The position numbers and the translations under genes are program-made. Shown here piece after piece: positions 21,449-27,379 of a stretch of 64,000 bases of DNA (position 1 is its first letter; each line of letters starts with the position of its first letter). Origin of the DNA: Candidatus Falkowbacteria bacterium (lineage in GTDB: Bacteria; Patescibacteriota; Patescibacteriia; JAACEG01); contig JABIDK010000014.1 of NCBI GenBank assembly GCA_018651725.1, forward strand, positions 70,625 through 134,624, written 5' to 3'. Below the pieces are notes generated by a model, which worked only from the letters and a program-made list of their open reading frames with translations, had not been told where the DNA came from and ran no database searches.

Positions 21449-22288
21449 ATGAAACAAGCCTACTTTATTTTTACAATTTTAATTTGCTTGCCCCTTATCG
21501 GGGTTTTTATTTTTCAGAATAATAACTTTGATAAAGAGCTTGTTTTAATGTACGATGAATTACTTTTTGATTTTGAGAAGCTGGCGAAGACAAGCTTAAA
21601 GCCTGATCAGGTTTTAGATAAAAAAATTGAGAATACGTCCGAAGACGAAAACAAAAAAGATGAAAACATTAAAGAAAAAGAAGAAAAAATCGAGTTTGAA
21701 GTTTTACCAAATAAAATTCATTACAACGTTCCTTTTACCTCGCAAGCCCCATTTCGTGATTGGAGTTATCCGTGGCAAGAGTTTTGTGAGGAGGCAGCGG
21801 TTTTGATTACTATGAGATATTTTGATGGTCGGGGAATTAAAGATAAAGATGATGCTAATGATGCTTTGCAGGAAATTATGAAATGGGAAAATGAAAACCT
21901 TGGTTTTTATAAAGATACAACTGCGACAACAACTATGAAAATCATTACTGATTTTTACGAATATGATAATGTAGAATTAAGTCATGACACAACAATAGAA
22001 AAAATAAAACAAGAATTAGCTAAAGGTAATTTAATCATAATTCCAACGGCCGGGCGTAATTTGGAAAACCCATATTTTACTCCACCTGGACCGATTTATC
22101 ATAATTTAGTGTTAGTAGGCTACGATAATGAAAAACAAATTTTTTACACCAACGACCCCGGAATAATGAGCGGTAAAGATTTTAAGTACAGTTATAAAAA
22201 TATAATAGAATCAATAGCTGATTGGAGCTACGAGAAAGAAACTATTGATAAATCAAGAAAAGTTATGATAATTGTGCGAGGTGGTTAA
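21449..22288 (+). CDS. Secreted peptidase C39-like domain protein
   Basis: 279 aa with an N-terminal transmembrane/signal segment. Cys (QEFCEEAAV) and His (HNLVLVGYD) spacing is as in Peptidase_C39_2-type proteins. Confidence 0.5.
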   Translation: MKQAYFIFTILICLPLIGVFIFQNNNFDKELVLMYDELLFDFEKLAKTSLKPDQVLDKKIENTSEDENKKDENIKEKEEKIEFEVLPNKIHYNVPFTSQAPFRDWSYPWQEFCEEAAVLITMRYFDGRGIKDKDDANDALQEIMKWENENLGFYKDTTATTTMKIITDFYEYDNVELSHDTTIEKIKQELAKGNLIIIPTAGRNLENPYFTPPGPIYHNLVLVGYDNEKQIFYTNDPGIMSGKDFKYSYKNIIESIADWSYEKETIDKSRKVMIIVRGG

Positions 22289-22360: not shown

Positions 22361-24337
22361 ATGGAAAATCCAAATTTTTTAAAACAAAAATACAACTTAC
22401 ACAACACTCCGGAAGCAGATTCAGCCGCCAAAAGAACAAAAAAAAGAACAGGCGAAAAAGTTTCTCAAAAGCCGGGCGAGAAAATACAGAATTATTTAGA
22501 TAGATTCAATGAAATTATCGAACGCAAAGATCCGGACAAAAAAGAACGAGGCATTGGAGCGCTTAAAAGAATACTCCATAATAAATTTGTTCTTAAAGAG
22601 GATGAGATTCCGCAAACATATTACAATTTACAAGGCGAAATCGCCGTAGAGGAAGGCAGGACACAGGAGCTTATTGATAGTGGCGTAGAAATAGAAAATA
22701 AAAAAACTAAAAACAAGAAAGGTGAAGAAATTGAAGAAAAAGAATTTATTTTTCCAAATAAGATAAAAAAGGAATTATCAGAAGTCATTATTGCCGATCA
22801 AGAAAGCACTATGGATAACTGGATTGATTATTTATCATCAGATGATGCTCAATATCCTGATTGGCTTAAGTATTATGCTTTTCGAAATATGCTTAACTTA
22901 GGTAAATACGACAAGGAAAGAAAAAAGTTTCCGCCAAGAGAGCTTCCTGACCGCTCGGATAAGCCAAAGAAAAAAGAAAATTTAACCACCGCCCCTTTTC
23001 CCGACTTAAATCGTGAAGCCCTGGCTTATGTTTTGGATGCAATCGAAAAGAAGCATAAAAAAGAAGGCATTAACCTGGAATTCCAAGACGAAGAAGAAAA
23101 AAATAATTTTCAAAAAATACTTCAAGGAGAAAATTTTGCCAAGCTCTACGCCTGGGCGATTGAAAAAGTAACTCCGGCCTCACAAGAAGTCTTGGAAACC
23201 GTCAAGGGCAAATGGATAAAATACGACCAAGGCACAGATCATATGCCTTTGGTTAACTCTCTCCAGGGCCACGGCACTGGCTGGTGCACAGCCGGAGAAT
23301 CAACTGCTCGGACCCAATTACAAGGAGGAGATTTTTATGTTTTTTACTCTGAAGATGAAAATAATAATCCAATTATTCCTCGCGCCGCTATCAGAATGGA
23401 GGGGCAAAGCAAAATAGCCGAAGTAAGAGGCATTGCCCATGAGCAGAACTTAGACGCTCATATCACAGATACGGTTAAAGAAAAAGTGAGCGAATTCGGA
23501 GAAGAGGGCAAAAAATACGAGAAAAAATCAAAAGACATGAAGCACTTGACTGAAATAGAAAATAAAACTAAAAATAACCAAGAATTAACTAAGGATAATT
23601 TAATTTTTCTCTATGAGATAGATGACCCTATTGAAGGCTTTGGCTACCAAAGAGATCTAAGAATCGAAGAAATCCGAAAGATAAGAGACACGGAAAAAGA
23701 TGCATCTATTGTTTTTGAATGCGACTCAAATCAAATCGCCAAAAACATAAGCGAAATAAACGAAAACACCGAAGCCTATATCGGAGAGTGGGATCCAAGT
23801 ATCTATCAAGAAATCAGAAAATACCCAAACATCAAACATCTTTACGAATCTTTTCCGGATAAAAAGATATTCAAGATGAATTTGGAGACTGATCCAAGTA
23901 TCAATTCTCCTCAAACCGCCCTAGAAGCGCTGGAAGGCGAAAATATATATTTAACAAACTGGGCAAAGGATATTTTAAAAGAAACTAAGTTCAGTAAAGA
24001 AAAACAAAACCAAAACCACGAATTAGTCAGATTTACAGTTAAAGAGCTTGGATTTCCAAACGGAGCAACAACCAAAGAAATTTACGATAAACTAGAAGAG
24101 CTTGGGCTGGATCTTTGCCCAACTGAAACAGGACCACAGCTCAGGCTAAAGTATCCGGGCAAAGAGTGGATGTTGATTGCCATGGAACCGATTGCCGACT
24201 CCGATGGCGATCCGGACGTGTTCGATCTGCGCGGGGCTTACGGGCAGCTGGGGCTCCTTGCCCATGACGCTCGGCCCGGCGACAGGTGGCGTCCAGGCGA
24301 CAGGTTCGTCTTCCGTCCCCGCAAGTTGGATTCTTAG
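22361..24337 (+). CDS. DGR target protein; C-terminal about 45 aa form the variable region
   Basis: 658 aa. The 3' 135 nt are a GC-rich repeat with a near-identical copy 476 nt downstream (the TR). The C-terminus ...RGAYGQLGLLAHDARPGDRWRPGDRFVFRPRK resembles the end of a C-type-lectin-fold VR. No N-terminal signal peptide is visible. Confidence 0.7.
   Translation: MENPNFLKQKYNLHNTPEADSAAKRTKKRTGEKVSQKPGEKIQNYLDRFNEIIERKDPDKKERGIGALKRILHNKFVLKEDEIPQTYYNLQGEIAVEEGRTQELIDSGVEIENKKTKNKKGEEIEEKEFIFPNKIKKELSEVIIADQESTMDNWIDYLSSDDAQYPDWLKYYAFRNMLNLGKYDKERKKFPPRELPDRSDKPKKKENLTTAPFPDLNREALAYVLDAIEKKHKKEGINLEFQDEEEKNNFQKILQGENFAKLYAWAIEKVTPASQEVLETVKGKWIKYDQGTDHMPLVNSLQGHGTGWCTAGESTARTQLQGGDFYVFYSEDENNNPIIPRAAIRMEGQSKIAEVRGIAHEQNLDAHITDTVKEKVSEFGEEGKKYEKKSKDMKHLTEIENKTKNNQELTKDNLIFLYEIDDPIEGFGYQRDLRIEEIRKIRDTEKDASIVFECDSNQIAKNISEINENTEAYIGEWDPSIYQEIRKYPNIKHLYESFPDKKIFKMNLETDPSINSPQTALEALEGENIYLTNWAKDILKETKFSKEKQNQNHELVRFTVKELGFPNGATTKEIYDKLEELGLDLCPTETGPQLRLKYPGKEWMLIAMEPIADSDGDPDVFDLRGAYGQLGLLAHDARPGDRWRPGDRFVFRPRKLDS
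24191..24325 (+). repeat. DGR variable repeat (VR)
   Basis: About 135 nt. It aligns with 24667..24801 with roughly 22 differences. In every one the TR base is A and the VR base is G, C or T. Confidence 0.8.
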
Positions 24338-24386
24338 AAACTTTGAACCTTTGTATTTTTTGAAATTTGGACACTTTGACATTTTT

Positions 24387-24408
24387 CCGCCGCCAGAGGC
24401 GGTCGCTG
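24387..24408 (+). other. GC-rich hairpin (CCGCC-AGA-GGCGG) downstream of VR
   Basis: TCCGCCGCCAGAGGCGGTCGC sits in an AT-rich spacer about 60 nt after the VR end. It is a candidate DGR-associated stem-loop. Confidence 0.3.
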
Positions 24409-24666
24409 TAATTTTTAAGATTGACGATATTTTGCTATAATGAAATTAGCTTGATTTTATCAGGCGGTTACGGCTTCCTGAGATTTGGCTGGCAAATATG
24501 GATTTAGAGTGCAAGCGGCCATGGCTTTTTGCAGAGTGATTTATATTTTGTCTTTAAAAAAGAAATTAACTTTGTGTATCGCGCTAAGGCATTTAAGATG
24601 TCGGATAAAATACAGCCAGATCTTTTTTGCATCAGGTCGGCAGTGGCAAATGGAGGTGCGATATAC

Positions 24667-24801
24667 ATTACCGACTCCGATGGCGATCCGAACGTGTTCA
24701 ATCTGAACGAGAATAACGGGCAGCTGAAGCTCAATGCCAATGACGCTAAGCCCGGCAACAGGTGGAATCAAGGCAACAGGTTCGTCTTCCGTCCCCGAAA
24801 G
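24667..24801 (+). repeat. DGR template repeat (TR)
   Basis: It is rich in AAC/AAT codons (aac gtg ttc aat ctg aac gag aat aac ...). All mismatches to the VR fall at TR adenines. Confidence 0.8.
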
Positions 24802-24819
24802 TCGTTTCTTTTTCCGCGG

Positions 24820-25224
24820 TTACCTAAAATTGCGGTTTTTCTTTTCAAAGTTTTTTAGACTATTTTTCCAACCCCCAAACATTTTACCGATTTCATCCAA
24901 CTTGAAAACAATTTCTTCATATTGTTTATTTGAAATAAATTTTGCTTCCCAAGCAACATGAATCAAAAATTTAAGCGTATCTAAAATAAGGATACACTTT
25001 GAAATTTTATCCATCTTCGTTTCTTTTTTAGAAAAATATGCGATATAGGAAATTTCAAGCAAATCAAGAAATTTATTTTCAATTCTAGCGCCAATGGTAA
25101 AGCGCGCAGTTTTCTTAATATGAGGAACAATATTAATCCAAATCAAATATCCCTCTTTGATGCGTTGCAAAATAGAAGATTTATCGAGAGAGAGAGAGAG
25201 AGAGAGAGTAAAAGGCTTCGCCAT
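24820..25224 (-). CDS. avd: Avd-like accessory variability determinant (four-helix-bundle protein, TIGR02436/23S-IVS family)
   Basis: 134 aa. ...IVPHIKKTARFTIGARIENKFLDLLEISYIA...FKLDEIGKMFGGW aligns with Bordetella phage bAvd (...IPRKHGVAREMFLKCLLGQVEL...IAEVGRILGSW). It is one of only two minus-strand genes in the window. Confidence 0.7.
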   Translation of the reverse strand: MAKPFTLSLSLSLDKSSILQRIKEGYLIWINIVPHIKKTARFTIGARIENKFLDLLEISYIAYFSKKETKMDKISKCILILDTLKFLIHVAWEAKFISNKQYEEIVFKLDEIGKMFGGWKNSLKNFEKKNRNFR

Positions 25225-26193
25225 ATTTACAATAATATCATTTCTTTTGATAATTTGCTAATTTCCTGGCAGGAATTTTTGCGAGGGAAAAGAAAAAGAA
25301 AGGATGTCGCGGAATTTCAACTTAATTTTAGTGATAACGTTTTACAGCTTCATCATAATCTTCAAAATAAGACATATAATCATGGTGCTTACCAGGCGTT
25401 TAAAATAAACGATCCGAAGCCAAGAAATATCCATAAAGCTAGCGTGCGAGATCGGATGGTACATCACGCGATTTATAGAATTCTATATCCTTATTTTGAT
25501 AGAAAATTTATTTATGATTCTTATTCTTGTAGAATTAATAAAGGGACACATAGGGCAATAAATAGATTTCGGGATTTTAGCTATAAAGTTTCAAAAAATA
25601 ATATCCGTATTTGTTGGATTTTAAAATGCGACATCAAAAAATTTTTTGCCAGCATTGATCATAAAATTTTGAAAGATATTTTAGAAAAATATATAGCGGA
25701 CAAAAACGCTTTGTGGTTGCTCTTGCGAGTTATAGATAGTTTTAGCAGTAAAAATAAAATAGGAGTCGGCTTGCCGCTTGGAAATTTAACTTCACAACTT
25801 TTAGTAAATATTTATATGAACGAGTTTGACCAGTTTATGAAGCGTGAAATTAAAGCAAAATATTATATCCGCTATGCCGATGATTTTGTTATAATAAGTG
25901 AAAATAAAAAATATTTGGAGGATCTTATTCCAAAAATTTCAAAATTTCTTGAAGAAAAATTAAAGCTCTCACTTCATCCAAATAAATTATTTATCAAAAC
26001 GTTAAATTCCGGAGTTGATTTTTTGGGTTGGGTTAATTTTTCTTATCATCGGGTATTGAGGACGACAACAAAAAGGAGAATGATTAAAAAAGTTACATTG
26101 AAACATAATACGGAATCAATTGCTTCATATTTAGGAATGCTTTCGCATGGAGATGCTTATAAGCTTTCCGAAGAAATTTTATCTAATTTATAA
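25120..26193 (+). CDS. DGR reverse transcriptase (bounds of the ORF from the first ATG; the real start is probably near 25225-25255)
   Basis: LISWQEFLRGKRKRK...KPRNIHKASVRDRMVHHA...SYSCRINKGTHRA...GLPLGNLTSQLLVNIYMNEFD...IRYADDFVII is collinear with Bordetella phage Brt, including the YxDD box. Homology to Brt begins at about codon 36 of the ORF, and there is no in-frame ATG there. Confidence 0.8.
   Translation: MRNNINPNQISLFDALQNRRFIERERERESKRLRHIYNNIISFDNLLISWQEFLRGKRKRKDVAEFQLNFSDNVLQLHHNLQNKTYNHGAYQAFKINDPKPRNIHKASVRDRMVHHAIYRILYPYFDRKFIYDSYSCRINKGTHRAINRFRDFSYKVSKNNIRICWILKCDIKKFFASIDHKILKDILEKYIADKNALWLLLRVIDSFSSKNKIGVGLPLGNLTSQLLVNIYMNEFDQFMKREIKAKYYIRYADDFVIISENKKYLEDLIPKISKFLEEKLKLSLHPNKLFIKTLNSGVDFLGWVNFSYHRVLRTTTKRRMIKKVTLKHNTESIASYLGMLSHGDAYKLSEEILSNL
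25186..25208. repeat. (GA)11 dinucleotide microsatellite, which is (TC)11 on the avd coding strand
   Basis: gagagagagagagagagagagag read directly. It encodes LSLSLSL at codons 7-13 of avd, and ERERERE in the upstream extension of the RT ORF. Confidence 0.95.
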
Positions 26194-26312: not shown

Positions 26313-26384
26313 GCGCCCGTAGTTCAACGGATAGAACACCAGCCTTCTAAGCTGGTTATGGGGGTTCGATTCCCTCCGGGCGTA
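26313..26384 (+). tRNA. tRNA-Arg (anticodon TCT)
   Basis: Manual cloverleaf. Acceptor GCGCCCG/CGGGCGT, D-stem GTTC/GAAC, anticodon stem CCAGC/GCTGG with loop CTTCTAA, T-arm GGGGG-TTCGATT-CCCTC. 72 nt, no encoded CCA. Confidence 0.85.
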
Positions 26385-26454
26385 CTGAGTATTTTATAAA
26401 ACGGTAGAGCGATAAGAATAACCACAAACCGTTGACTTTACATTTTATATTTTA

Positions 26455-26943
26455 GTGGTATACTTAATATGTATGTCGCAAACAAAATGTAAAATTTGTC
26501 AAAAAGAGTTTTATATTAGGCCTAGTCGTTTAAAGATTGGTTGGGGAAAATATTGCTCAATTAAATGTAGAAACGTTTCACAGCGAACAGGACGATATCT
26601 TTTTTGCGCAGTATGTAAGAAGAAAATATGGAAAACTCCCAAAGAAGAAAGATGTTCAAAGAGCGGAAAATTTTTTTGTAATAAATCTTGTCAAACAAAA
26701 TGGAGAAATAAATATTATTCTAGAGAAAAACACCATTTTTGGATTAATGGTAAAAATGTTTATCGGACAATAATGTTAGAGCAAAAAGATAAGCCAGTTT
26801 GTAAAAAATGTAAAGTTAAAGATGTTAGAGTTTTAGTGGTTCATCACAAGGATCATGATAGGGAAAATAATAAAATAAATAATTTAATGTGGTTATGCAG
26901 AAATTGTCATCATTTAGTACATATTCACGATAAAAAAGTTTAA
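26455..26943 (+). CDS. HNH endonuclease with N-terminal CxxC zinc ribbons
   Basis: 162 aa. It has multiple CxxC pairs and a C-terminal HHKDHDRENNKINNLMWLCRNCHHLVH HNH box. Confidence 0.7.
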   Translation: MVYLICMSQTKCKICQKEFYIRPSRLKIGWGKYCSIKCRNVSQRTGRYLFCAVCKKKIWKTPKEERCSKSGKFFCNKSCQTKWRNKYYSREKHHFWINGKNVYRTIMLEQKDKPVCKKCKVKDVRVLVVHHKDHDRENNKINNLMWLCRNCHHLVHIHDKKV

Positions 26944-26951
26944 TATATCAT

Positions 26952-27025
26952 GGCGGGGTTGGTGAAATTGGTTATCACTCGAGTTTGTGGTACTCGCGTC
27001 ACGGGTTCAAATCCCGTACCTCGCC
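26952..27025 (+). tRNA. tRNA-His (anticodon GTG) with encoded G-1
   Basis: Manual fold. G-1, acceptor GCGGGGT/ACCTCGC (one G:U), D-stem GTGA/TCAC, anticodon stem CGAGT/ACTCG with loop TTGTGGT, T-arm ACGGG-TTCAAAT-CCCGT, discriminator C. Confidence 0.8.
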
Positions 27026-27040
27026 CAGAATTTATAACAT

Positions 27041-27379
27041 ATGATTATTTTAAATTGGTTGATAATGGCTTTGTCAATTTTAATTGCAGCCTATATTGTG
27101 CCAGGGGTAACAATCAGTGGGATTTGGGCGGCTTTGTGGCTGGCGATATTTTTAGCTTTAGTTAATGTTATTTTAAAACCGCTTTTAATTTTAATAACTT
27201 TGCCGATTAATATTTTAACTTTAGGACTTTTTACTTTTGTTATAAATGCTTTGTTAATTTTATTATCATCAACTGTTATAAAAGGTTTTGAAGTTAGTGG
27301 ATTTTTAGCAGCAATATTATTTAGTATTTTGCTTTCAATTATTAGTTATATTTTAGGAGCTTTGATTAAGACAAAATAG
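27041..27379 (+). CDS. Small 4-TM membrane protein, phage-holin-4-like (DUF360/YvlD-type)
   Basis: 112 aa. The Gly/Ala/Leu/Pro pattern (IVPGVTISGIWAALWLAIFLALVNVILKPLL...LTLGLFTF) is typical of the family. Confidence 0.45.
   Translation: MIILNWLIMALSILIAAYIVPGVTISGIWAALWLAIFLALVNVILKPLLILITLPINILTLGLFTFVINALLILLSSTVIKGFEVSGFLAAILFSILLSIISYILGALIKTK

Follow-up and report, generated by a model that had tools for sequence, protein, structure and literature searches.

The locus described here, in a Candidatus Falkowbacteria genome, is very probably a chromosomal diversity-generating retroelement (DGR) of a lineage specific to Patescibacteria, for which we propose a mechanism based on a distinct template RNA unit and regulation by a simple-sequence repeat tract. 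The central reading, in which a target gene with its variable repeat (VR), a template repeat (TR), an inverted avd gene and a reverse transcriptase (RT) make up a complete DGR, is supported by profile, structure-sequence, fold and population evidence. A preliminary description of the window (the whole 64,000-nucleotide stretch analysed) had claimed four DGR hallmarks, and all of them were found in place, with every open reading frame of the element intact. It had also pointed out that DGRs are known from CPR lineages, and as a cassette the element is indeed an ordinary member of a catalogued CPR kind, with nothing to set it apart from the Patescibacteria group. More interesting than the cassette are a (GA)11 tract, a structured leader RNA and an octamer array, all absent from that description; if the tract puts both enzyme genes in and out of frame, targeted hypermutation could in its turn be subject to switching. 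We found no description in the accessible literature of the junction repeat tract, of a structured leader that has a separate promoter and terminator, or of the CTTTGA array.

The cassette and its repeats

22361..24337, + strand: DGR target gene, 658 aa (MBT4277746.1, Candidatus Falkowbacteria MAG)
24191..24326, + strand: VR, the last 45 codons of the target, one copy of a 136-nt direct repeat
24300..24326, + strand: IMH-like 3' end of the VR, with the GC-rich invariant stretch ACAGGTTCGTCTTCCGTCCCCG inside it
24667..24802, + strand: TR, the second copy of the 136-nt direct repeat, with 39 adenines
24776-24802, + strand: IMH*, the TR counterpart of the IMH-like end
24820..25224, - strand: avd, 134 aa
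25120..26193, + strand: DGR reverse transcriptase, 357 aa, from ATG 25120 with (GA)11 (alternative ATG 25160 with (GA)10)

The repeat shared by the target end and its downstream copy is present and adenine-specific as first described, but spans 136 nt and not 135 nt. VR and TR are 84% identical, and all 22 mismatches are a TR adenine that reads G (12), C (8) or T (2) in the VR, while the 97 non-A template bases are conserved without exception; 21 of the 22 affect the first or second codon position in the target frame, where most TR adenines also lie (17 at position 1, 20 at position 2 and 2 at position 3). Because these mismatches are one-directional and A-specific, within a segment of 68% GC in a window of 34% GC, the repeat is not a product of chance. 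A search of both strands of the window returned no further VR-like copies. The homology stops at 24326/24802, and its GC-rich end is called IMH-like by analogy with the Bordetella phage BPP-1 element as described in PMC5758913.

The 134-aa product of avd, one of very few minus-strand genes of the window, was taken for Avd at the outset, and it matches Pfam bAvd (PF22296) at E=2.3e-15 and 57.4 bits (cutoff 40); with NCBIfam DivGenRetAVD it gives E=3e-18 and 66 bits, which is under that model's cutoff of 80. Beside the TR, the coding ends of avd and the RT overlap antisense and head-to-head. The RT, initially likened to Bordetella phage Brt, matches RVT_1 (E=2e-24) and has as its best PDB sequence match the Bordetella phage DGR RT, bRT (8ub7, E=7e-43), whereas group II intron and retron RTs reach about 1e-21. 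It carries LGNLTSQ (25777-97, aligned to IGSLTSQ of bRT) and YADD (25873-25884) within the motif IRYADDFVII.

An alternative, named in the preliminary description as far as group II introns and retrons are concerned, would make the RT that of a group II intron, a retron or a defence system and the repeat an ordinary duplication. The RT does share motifs 1-7 and a broad prokaryotic RT class with group II intron and retron RTs, it scores highest in NCBIfam with a group II intron RT/maturase model (152 bits), with Drt3a and the retron St85 RT next, and PADLOC returns generic RT and DRT matches. However, those NCBIfam scores are far under the curated cutoffs (152 vs 300, 82 vs 200 and 65 vs 235), bRT is the best single-sequence match by 20 orders of magnitude, Rfam detects no group II intron or retron (msr/msd) RNA, the GxxxSQ motif is not of the intron type, and Avd adjoins the RT together with a TR/VR pair. 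An ordinary duplication would not yield 22 one-directional, A-specific differences concentrated at codon positions 1 and 2. With a cassette that moreover recurs in 64 loci, each of which carries its own A-specific TR/VR pair, we consider this alternative refuted by the mismatches, the bRT match and the recurrence, and leave it practically no probability.

Lineage, target and activity

DGRs of CPR bacteria were reportedly first described by Paul et al. in 2017. The layout of the present element, at first called unusual, is the standard Patescibacteria architecture: the order VR, a gap of 256-465 nt, TR and the 3' end of avd holds in 64 of the 64 related loci whose DNA reached far enough to be scored, and avd is inverted and head-to-head with the RT in 76 of 76. 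This corresponds to architecture B3, 'TR-(avd)-RT', the layout of 90% of the elements in the CPR set of Wu et al. 2018 (126 members; PMC5758913), and Patescibacteria DGRs form clade 2 of Roux 2021 (PMC8144416). The element resembles these DGRs in gene order and orientation, in its chromosomal location, in its origin from aquatic metagenomes, in RTs that are 61-75% identical and in a C-terminal VR.

The target protein has no match in Pfam, NCBIfam, PADLOC or PDB sequences, but it is not the one-off hypervariable protein that was initially supposed, as more than 3,100 full-length homologues with the same VR-like C-terminus exist in Patescibacteria. Its AF2 model has a pLDDT of 87, and one further feature can be delimited:

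23858..24334, + strand: C-terminal VR-bearing module (aa 500-658), a divergent C-type-lectin or FGE-like fold

The last ~115-160 residues appear to adopt a divergent C-type-lectin fold, with which the structure matches are consistent but weak (Z <=5.9). The missing secretion signal had been treated as an oddity; the target lacks a signal peptide, a TM segment and any recognisable domain, and for the Patescibacteria DGR clade this is reported to be the norm (Roux 2021, PMC8144416). The protein is probably cytoplasmic, although another location may apply.

A protein from another metagenome, P0001, is encoded on a syntenic 192-kb contig and is 98% identical to the window protein; the two are identical over 610 residues outside the VR and differ at 13 residues, all within it. 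Each of the 13 corresponds to a TR codon with A at position 1 or 2 and is reachable by A-to-N changes alone, and by this comparison of sequences the element has apparently been active. It might instead be a relic in which the VR differences are old and diversification has ceased, a reading to which the occurrence of an identical VR protein on 17 contigs from several assemblies, and of an Avd-truncating (GA)10 allele in two assemblies, would lend itself. Such a relic is nonetheless very unlikely, given that the reading frames are all intact, that the unbroken match of the 97 non-A template bases argues for recent homing, that two haplotypes have 13 independent A-derived changes in the VR, and that flanking DNA is near-identical over 10 kb. 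What the 17 contigs do indicate for an active element is that VR turnover is not so fast that assemblies all differ.

The proposed template RNA

24433..24441, + strand: extended -10 box TGCTATAAT for the TR RNA
24447..24666, + strand: structured, covarying leader of the DGR RNA, ~215 nt
24461-69/24472-80, 24498-504/24538-44 and 24510-20/24523-33: leader hairpins/helices H1, H2 and H3
24557-65: A-rich strand of the leader, AAAAAGAAA
24574-85/24655-66, 24589-92/24598-601 and 24615-19/24637-41: leader helices H5 (closing), H6 and H7
24805..24813, + strand: U-rich linker TTTCTTTTT, complementary to leader 24557-65 in a long-range duplex that brackets the TR
24814..24845, + strand: 3' hairpin (8 bp, 6-nt loop) and T-run, overlapping the avd stop codon and resembling an intrinsic terminator

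We infer that the TR is part of a separate RNA unit of ~400 nt, and the ends of this RNA and its priming site are assigned on the same footing. Across 65 loci the promoter box is a near-invariant TAnAAT, mostly preceded by TGn, and by a simple criterion a hairpin with a T-run stands 3' of the TR in 46 of the 65. RNAalifold predicts 46 pairs in the leader, with compensatory changes in 40 of them; 93.8% of alignment cells are paired, against 38-48% when the partners are slid, and the covariation score is 0.80 compared with 0.12-0.20 in controls, the observed values being reached by none of 500 shuffles. The leader has no match in Rfam. A CGGYYA-NGGYTT loop is common to two of its hairpins, and a 12-bp helix runs up to the first TR base. 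The duplex of leader and linker has a mean energy of -6.1 kcal/mol within a locus as opposed to -3.6 kcal/mol between loci (0 of 5000 permutations), with compensatory swaps visible among loci.

As it lies downstream of the target gene, the region 24447-24666 could be an unrelated sRNA or a 3'UTR element of that gene, outside the DGR RNA. We think this very unlikely: the region occurs in every cassette between promoter box and TR, its closing helix comes to within a few nucleotides of where the TR begins, the linker immediately 3' of the TR covaries with its A-rich strand, and at locus L007, where the target is elsewhere, the structured leader stays with the TR.

With the leader placed in the DGR RNA, we propose that the TR would be transcribed as a non-coding RNA of its own, ~400 nt long, from the TGnTATAAT box (24433-41) to the hairpin and T-run (24814-45), and that the ~215-nt leader and the duplex bracketing the TR may serve as a scaffold for RT-Avd binding. 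This scaffold, mostly 5' of the TR, could do what is done in the Bordetella phage element by the 'Sp' region downstream and by the upstream/downstream 'cPRT Stop' duplex. RT-Avd would then copy the TR starting at the 3' end (CGAAAGT) and misincorporate opposite adenines, and the cDNA would replace the VR via the invariant GC-rich IMH-like end. The BPP-1 DGR (mtd-avd-TR-brt) is alike in its adenine-specific TR-to-VR transfer, in an Avd and an RT with (I/L)GxLTSQ and YxDD, in a GC-rich IMH-like VR end and a CLec-fold variable domain, and in a duplex of sequences flanking the TR with a stem-loop just 3' of it; Handa et al. (bioRxiv 10.1101/2023.10.23.563531) place Avd-binding stem-loops at the position matching the 24814..24845 hairpin. 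Unlike in BPP-1, avd is here inverted and overlaps the RT start, the 140-nt TR-RT spacer is missing, the RNA appears to end ~45 nt past the TR, and no conserved adenosine was found that would correspond to Sp A56, the priming adenosine, in the element, which is cellular and not phage-borne, has a 658-aa protein and not a tail fibre as its target, and contains a candidate repeat-tract switch.

The repeat tract between avd and the RT

25186..25207, strand not assigned: (GA)11 simple-sequence repeat, a candidate phase-variation switch in the overlapping 5' coding ends of avd and the RT

The tract reads SLSLSLS in avd and ERERERE in the RT. A poly-G or (GA)n tract occupies the avd/RT junction in 69 of 76 related loci (~90%), between the conserved Avd start peptide and Avd helix 1, at a density of 7.6 per kb in junction windows compared with 0.012 per kb outside; this ~630-fold enrichment in AT-rich genomes implies selection for the tract. 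Among relatives (GA)n ranges from (GA)5 to (GA)18, and tract length is polymorphic, in otherwise near-identical DNA, within all five species tested ((GA)11/10; (GA)12/10/7; G9/G10; (GA)10/8/7; (GA)11/10). Homopolymers and dinucleotide repeats are error-prone and the poly-G alleles are only 1 nt apart, and these length differences might on that account be artefacts of sequencing or assembly. We hold this to be highly improbable, since (GA)n alleles differ by 4, 6 and 10 nt, each allele of the window species is present in at least two independent assemblies, the remaining 3-10 kb is identical, and relatives cover so wide a range of lengths.

The consequences of a change in length follow from the reading frames, and Avd gene calls track the tract frame. 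At n=11, and likewise at 8 or 14, all 134 aa of Avd are encoded and the RT begins at ATG 25120; at n=10 or 13 Avd is cut short after 13-15 aa and the RT is read from ATG 25160; at n=9 or 12 Avd ends after 25-27 aa and there is no in-frame RT start upstream of the conserved N-terminus. As the tract falls where the first ~35 codons of the two genes overlap in antisense, slipped-strand changes in the length of (GA)n at 25186-25207 would turn the Avd/RT machinery on or off, and judged by its frames the window element (n=11) is in what would be the ON configuration. The RT part of such a switch would be leaky, because the RT of the window species has an ATG in two of three frames.

It is conceivable, and of the alternatives weighed here the one with the most to be said for it, though still improbable on balance, that the tract is real and unstable without being an ON/OFF switch: it may be tolerated slippery DNA, have another homopurine role (promoter spacing for the divergent genes, DNA or RNA structure), or be compensated by transcriptional slippage or ribosomal frameshifting that keeps expression constant. 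In keeping with this, 70 of 71 tracts are homopurine (poly-G or GA) on the RT-sense strand, the two RT start codons would soften any switch, and the phase of assembled representatives is near random, an in-frame upstream start being present for avd in 23 of 71 tracts and for the RT in 29 of 71. Near-random phase fits frequent switching or mostly-OFF populations, and equally a tract whose genomic length is irrelevant. Weighing against a passive tract, however, are its fixed position, its enrichment, the occurrence at one site of perfect repeats of two unit types, and the fact that in two species the same tract length puts both genes in frame. In a lineage that lacks the tract, moreover, the start codons are adjacent or overlapping instead, and the tract-less species shows no variation among 9 contigs. 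Control by promoter spacing would still be phase variation.

Read as a switch of avd and the RT, the tract resembles the simple-sequence-repeat contingency loci exemplified by Campylobacter jejuni poly-G tracts and by repeat tracts in phase-variable genes of Neisseria and Helicobacter (background in PMC4965091 and PMC3315296): a perfect homopolymer or dinucleotide tract in a 5' coding region, strongly over-represented for the genome composition and variable in length within species, with length modulo 3 setting the integrity of the reading frame. It differs in that the genes gated would be hypermutation enzymes, and not surface or restriction-modification genes, and in that a single tract, read on either strand, bears on two divergent genes.

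Possible target-site marks downstream of the VR

24329..24382, + strand: about six degenerate 8-nt repeats nnCTTTGA, beginning at the target stop codon
24387..24402, + strand: GC hairpin CCGCC-GCCAGA-GGCGG, followed by a T-run

The octamer array and the GC hairpin may be target-site marks. The hairpin is likely the terminator of the target gene, the equivalent of the inverted repeat that follows the IMH in BPP-1, or both, and other loci have GC hairpins of different sequence at this position. In the post-VR region of 65 loci CTTTGA is 18-fold enriched, with a spacing of 8 nt in 28 cases and 16 nt in 12, and at L007 the array accompanies the remote VR and not the TR promoter.

Identity of the cassette

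The locus comprises the following features, all in window coordinates:

22361-24337, plus strand: target gene, an ORF of 658 aa whose final 45 codons form the variable repeat (VR)
24191-24326: VR
24667-24802: template repeat (TR)
24820-25224, minus strand: avd (accessory variability determinant)
25120-26193, plus strand: reverse transcriptase (RT) ORF

The preliminary description had claimed a complete diversity-generating retroelement (DGR) at this site, consisting of a target gene with a VR, a TR, an inverted avd and an RT, and each of these components is indeed present. The last 136 nt of the target recur as the TR at 84% identity; all 22 mismatches substitute G, C or T in the VR for an adenine in the TR, and the 97 non-adenine bases of the TR are without exception unchanged. 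All but one of these mismatches (21/22) fall at codon position 1 or 2 of the target frame, and the 39 TR adenines, read in register, are distributed 17, 20 and 2 over codon positions 1, 2 and 3. The pair forms an island of 57-63% GC in a window of 34% GC, and no second VR-like copy was found in the window. An invariant stretch, ACAGGTTCGTCTTCCGTCCCCG, closes both repeats, and the flanking sequence departs after 24326 and 24802; with its GC-rich start and its location at the 3' end of either repeat, it is a candidate IMH/IMH* pair.

Among all solved structures, the RT is best matched by that of the Bordetella phage BPP-1 DGR (bRT, 8ub7; E=7e-43), with retron-type and group II intron RTs following at about 1e-21 (2e-21 for the next class). 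Motif 4 of DGR RTs conforms to (I/L/V)GxxxSQ, and our alignment places LGNLTSQ opposite the IGSLTSQ of bRT, and YADD opposite YMDD. The bRT match, together with 61-75% identity to the RTs of 64 cassettes bearing A-specific TR/VR pairs, assigns the predicted protein to the DGR subclass. It had been suggested that the enzyme might instead derive from a group II intron or a retron, but the family models fall far under their curated cutoffs (TIGR04416, 152 bits against 300, for the intron; St85, 65 against 235 bits, for the retron), neither an intron nor a retron RNA is detected by Rfam, and the neighbours of the gene are Avd and a TR. A defence-associated RT was rejected on similar grounds (Drt3a, 82 against 200 bits; Drt2, 65 against 390 bits). 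Avd is not universal among DGRs; the minus-strand ORF scores 57.4 bits against Pfam bAvd (cutoff 40) and 66 bits (E=3e-18) against NCBIfam DivGenRetAVD, which is under the curated cutoff of 80 for that model, and a phmmer search of PDB sequences returned no significant match. The window lists 67 ORFs that reach 120 aa or more; the plus strand has 58 of them, including nearly all of the large non-overlapping ones, and avd is one of very few credible minus-strand genes.

The locus combines an A-specific TR/VR pair, a coding VR with adenines at positions 1 and 2, an RT of the DGR subclass, an adjacent Avd, IMH/IMH* and a VR carried on a domain of predicted C-type-lectin fold, the domain types listed for the target being FGE/EgtB-like domains, animal CTLDs, invasin and intimin. 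We are highly confident that the finding is real and that its identification as a DGR is right.

The order of these components was initially thought unusual, but it is standard for the lineage. Architecture B3, or TR-(avd)-RT, represents 90% of the CPR collection of Wu et al. 2018 (PMC5758913), and clade 2 of Roux et al. 2021 comprises Patescibacteria-restricted, cell-encoded DGRs (PMC8144416); the TR-(avd)-RT order, an avd on the opposite strand and a Patescibacteria host place the window cassette in both. We assembled a comparison set of 80 loci (L001-L080) with RTs 61-71% identical to that of the window, all from Patescibacteria MAGs. Avd is inverted and head-to-head with the RT in each of the 76 having upstream DNA, and in all 64 with enough sequence for a purpose-written scan the TR abuts the 3' end of avd, the VR lies 380-530 nt upstream on the same strand, and the pair carries 9-29 A-specific mismatches. 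At one further locus, L007, the VR is on the opposite strand. The cassette type, its layout and the properties of its target are already known, and as a cassette this is an ordinary member of a catalogued lineage.

Across the 80 loci, identity to the window Avd falls into two groups. Where the target is homologous to the window's over its full length, most loci have 59-72%; the others have 30-45%, and a single locus, at 47%, has no target match in the fetched DNA. RT identity stays within 56-71% in both groups. Avd, leader RNA subtype and the type of repeat tract at the avd/RT junction, (GA)n or poly-G, seem to co-vary with target family.

Target protein and VR haplotypes

The target protein (MBT4277746.1, from a Candidatus Falkowbacteria MAG) is present on 17 contigs. 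It finds no match in Pfam, NCBIfam, PADLOC or the PDB, the last searched both by phmmer and with a 74-sequence profile. Its family is confined to Patescibacteria and numbers more than 3,100 homologues over the full length, in which the C-termini repeat one arrangement: scaffold residues are conserved, and the positions between are scrambled. Its 90% cluster has one other member, P0001, encoded on a syntenic 192-kb JGI contig. Compared at the protein level, the first 612 residues of the two are identical, and 13 differences are all confined to residues 613-647; every one occurs at a TR codon whose first or second base is an adenine, and adenine changes alone suffice to turn the TR codons into those for the P0001 residues. 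The two haplotypes are therefore independent products of one template, and the population signature called for in the preliminary description, VR-only and A-derived, is present at consensus level. That they differ only by these 13 changes supports past activity of the DGR.

The template itself is also polymorphic at one site, given that TR position 24770 is A in the window and C in all six other assemblies covering it (CAA, Gln, versus CCA, Pro); the VR equivalent, 24294, is C. An adenine gained here would create an extra mutable position.

Directly 5' of the target and on the same strand, a gene at 21449-22288 encodes a protein of 279 aa that is hydrophobic in an N-terminal segment and has a domain resembling Peptidase_C39 (E=1e-11), and it is syntenic in every contig of the window species.

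A length-variable tract at the avd/RT junction

Homology to bRT begins at RT residue 31 (25210), upstream of the avd ATG at 25224, and avd and RT therefore overlap head-to-head, by 105 nt if the RT starts at the ATG at 25120. Within this overlap lies the following feature:

25186-25207: (GA)11, read as SLSLSLS in Avd (codons 6-13) and as ERERERE in the RT (codons 23-29)

A perfect tract occupies the same site in 69 of 76 junction windows. By type, 57 junction tracts are poly-G of 8-12 nt and 14 are (GA)5-18 or (GT)8. The remaining 664 kb hold only 8 such tracts, and the density is about 630-fold higher at junctions (7.6 versus 0.012 per kb). On the avd strand the tract invariably follows a conserved start peptide, often M-x-QLNFH, and precedes the first of the conserved helices. 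Over 25120-25224 the first ~35 codons of RT and avd overlap in antisense, and the N-terminal extension of the RT (MRNNINPNQISLFD...) is conserved in other (GA)n-type species, constrained by Avd helix 1 on the opposite strand.

The length of the tract determines the predicted reading frames of both genes.

Predicted frames as a function of n in (GA)n
n; Avd; RT
8, 11, 14; intact (132, 134, 136 aa); ORF from ATG 25120
10, 13; ends after 13-15 aa; alternative ATG 25160 in frame
9, 12; ends after 25-27 aa; no in-frame start upstream of the conserved N-terminus

Contigs with a target identical to that of the window differ from it over ~10 kb in three respects only: one TR base, one SNP and the length of this tract. 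Within the window species, two assemblies share the n=11 of the window, and another two, independent of each other, have n=10. Comparisons within this and related species, each located by exact RT look-ups, gave the following.

Tract variation within species (the window species and the species of five related RT proteins)
Species; tracts; Avd gene calls
Window species; (GA)11, (GA)10; 134 / 108 aa
P0156; (GA)12, (GA)10, (GA)7; 134 / 104 / 104 aa
P0207; G9, G10; not called
P0163; (GA)10, (GA)8, (GA)7; 132 / 107 / 130 aa
P0199; (GA)11, (GA)10; 105 aa on (GA)11 contigs
P0175 (tract-less control); invariant in 9 contigs; 122 aa throughout

Tract length was polymorphic in all five species tested, in steps beyond multiples of 3, and the tract-less P0175 was invariant. 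The Avd gene calls track the predicted frame. In the P0156 species the flanking DNA is in other respects practically the same; at n=12 Avd and an ATG-initiated RT are both in frame, and at n=10 and n=7 both are broken. Gene callers applied to the same RT DNA return proteins of 304, 312, 343 or 357 aa, and the Avd N-termini are similarly inconsistent (134, 108 or 104 aa).

The position of the tract is conserved, selection for it is strong, and no other site of the locus varies as much; these are the properties of a contingency locus: a perfect tract, over-represented in 5' coding sequence, that is polymorphic in length without restriction to multiples of 3. From predicted frames and gene calls, we lean slightly toward the tract being an ON/OFF switch of diversification. 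Among assembled representatives, avd is in frame with an upstream start in 23 of 71 and RT in 29 of 71. A fraction of about one third fits frequent switching or populations that are predominantly OFF. The same fraction would also fit an alternative in which genomic tract length is irrelevant and transcriptional slippage or frameshifting compensates. Were the tract a switch, one hypermutable poly-G or (GA)n tract, read on both strands, would stochastically toggle the diversification machinery within populations, such that most cells would retain an adapted variable protein and a subpopulation would re-diversify.

How DGRs are restrained, so that useful variable sequence is kept from immediate overwriting, is a standing question, and it is regulation that would matter. 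Known restraints are low intrinsic efficiency and host factors. The tract occurs in ultra-small symbiotic bacteria, a group unusually rich in DGRs. If the switch is real, a length-variable tract framing Avd and RT would be a simple genetic answer to the problem, with one evolvability device (a contingency locus) governing another (a retroelement mutator). On a practical level, roughly two-thirds of assembled CPR DGRs have an avd, an RT or both that appear 'frameshifted' or mis-started, and automated surveys will as a consequence mis-call or discard them.

A proposed structured RNA unit carrying the TR

The gap between VR and TR, 340 nt in the window and 256-465 nt across loci, is conserved in both size and sequence. 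Its elements, with those 3' of the TR, are:

24433-24441: TGCTATAAT, the window copy of a TAnAAT box that is near-invariant across loci and usually preceded by TGn
24461-24480: H1 hairpin, loop motif CGGYYA-NGGYTT
24498-24544: H2/H3 hairpin, with the same loop motif as H1
24557-24565: AAAAAGAAA, a conserved A-rich leader strand
24574-24585 with 24655-24666: a 12-bp helix closing a domain that holds two small hairpins, and stopping one base before the TR
24805-24813: TTTCTTTTT, linker complementary to the A-rich leader strand

A sigma-70 -35-like TTGACG (24422-24427) was discarded, lying only 8 nt from the -10 box. We aligned the leader, ~215 nt from the -10 box to the first TR base, over 58 loci (alignment A3), and RNAalifold returned 46 base pairs, 40 of them with compensatory double changes.

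Pairing statistics of the leader alignment
Quantity; in the alignment; with columns shuffled; with partners shifted by 1-3 columns
Cells in standard pairs; 93.8%; 68.5%; 38-48%
Covariation score; 0.80; 0.30; 0.12-0.20

An independent counting tool found that none of 500 shuffles attained the observed values. On the 3' side of the TR there follow, in order, a conserved CGAAAsT, the U-rich linker, a GC hairpin with covarying arms and a T-run. The duplex of leader and linker, evaluated over 57 loci, has a mean energy of -6.1 kcal/mol within loci versus -3.6 kcal/mol across loci, which none of 5000 permutations attained; a locus's own partner has a median rank of 5 of 57, and compensatory swaps are evident, for example AAATGAAAA/TTTTCATTT.

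Rfam searched over 24100-25400 with E up to 1 gave no match, and over the whole window two tRNAs only. The null result in the former interval excludes the published motifs RT-1 to RT-19; the leader RNA is without an Rfam family, and Weinberg et al. (PMC5737381) do not include it in their RT-associated motifs. It is reasonable to postulate that the TR would be supplied by its own RNA unit of ~400 nt, in which a promoter and a structured leader precede the TR and the linker and a hairpin terminator follow it, and such an autonomous RNA would explain the supply of a TR that is cut off from the RT by an inverted gene. We consider it likely that the leader serves as an RNA scaffold.

In BPP-1, the cDNA is primed from Sp A56, and its synthesis requires ~20 nt 5' of the TR together with a spacer of 140 nt downstream (PMC6182149). 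A cryo-EM study of the Bordetella system describes a 'cPRT Stop' duplex, formed by upstream and downstream sequence, and a stem-loop directly 3' of the TR that binds Avd, and reports these elements in many DGRs, including those of CPR, from folds of 40 nt upstream and 100 nt downstream (bioRxiv 10.1101/2023.10.23.563531). The leader:linker duplex and 3' hairpin observed here fit the description of the cPRT Stop duplex and stem-loop. The 215-nt covarying leader falls outside the region folded in that study. No priming nucleotide equivalent to Sp A56 was identified in the window DGR RNA. The covariation-backed leader supplies a specific model of secondary structure for another DGR ribonucleoprotein, a very divergent second one, and this model can be set against the cryo-EM structure from Bordetella and would be of use in engineering compact DGR mutagenesis tools.

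We regard it as an even proposition that DGR hypermutation in Patescibacteria is both phase-variable via the junction tract and dependent on a permuted DGR RNA, in which an autonomous transcript of ~400 nt would carry its structured scaffold 5', not 3', of the template.

Repeats and hairpin downstream of the VR

Two further elements lie between the VR and the promoter box:

24329-24382: about six degenerate 8-nt tandem repeats (nnCTTTGA), starting at the target stop codon
24387-24402: GC hairpin CCGCC-GCCAGA-GGCGG, 3' of the octamer array, with a T-run at 24412-24416

Across related loci CTTTGA is 18-fold enriched at the post-VR position, and a spacing of 8 nt dominates; unrelated GC hairpins are seen at the same post-array position in other loci. 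L007 has its VR far from its TR; there the octamers and hairpin go with the VR, and the sequence upstream of the TR promoter has neither, which suggests that they act at the site of the target or within its 3' end. Two other loci (L031, 855-1150; L070, 577-870) have a second VR copy ~3 kb upstream of the main cassette, and with it come the repeats and hairpin that lie downstream of the VR, the promoter box and the leader's first ~12-30 nt; the target 3' end has here been duplicated along with the TR-RNA promoter. Because the promoter was duplicated as well, they are uninformative as to which of the two, VR or promoter, the array is part of, and L007 alone discriminates. The window hairpin could be a terminator of the target gene, an equivalent of the inverted repeat that follows the IMH in BPP-1 (PMC5758913), or both; to equate array and hairpin together with that inverted repeat, by analogy, is speculative.

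The junction tract with its within-species length variation, the covariation-backed leader RNA and the octamer array appear to be undescribed in the literature open to search, in which we found no paper linking DGRs to repeat-tract switching; such a link is also absent from two large surveys. Together, the three mark the Patescibacteria DGR as a variant in regulation and architecture that deserves follow-up.

Neighbouring genes

An ORF at 26455-26943, downstream of the RT, was considered as an accessory gene and rejected: of the 80 related loci just 1 has a homologue, which is situated well upstream of its cassette. Its product is Cys-rich, of 162 aa, with a weak HNH/homing-endonuclease-like C-terminus (HNH_3, E=1.3e-4, under threshold). 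The ORF is flanked by tRNA-Arg(TCT) at 26313-26385 and tRNA-His(GTG) at 26953-27026, and an ORF at 26950-27165 that overlaps the latter is probably spurious.
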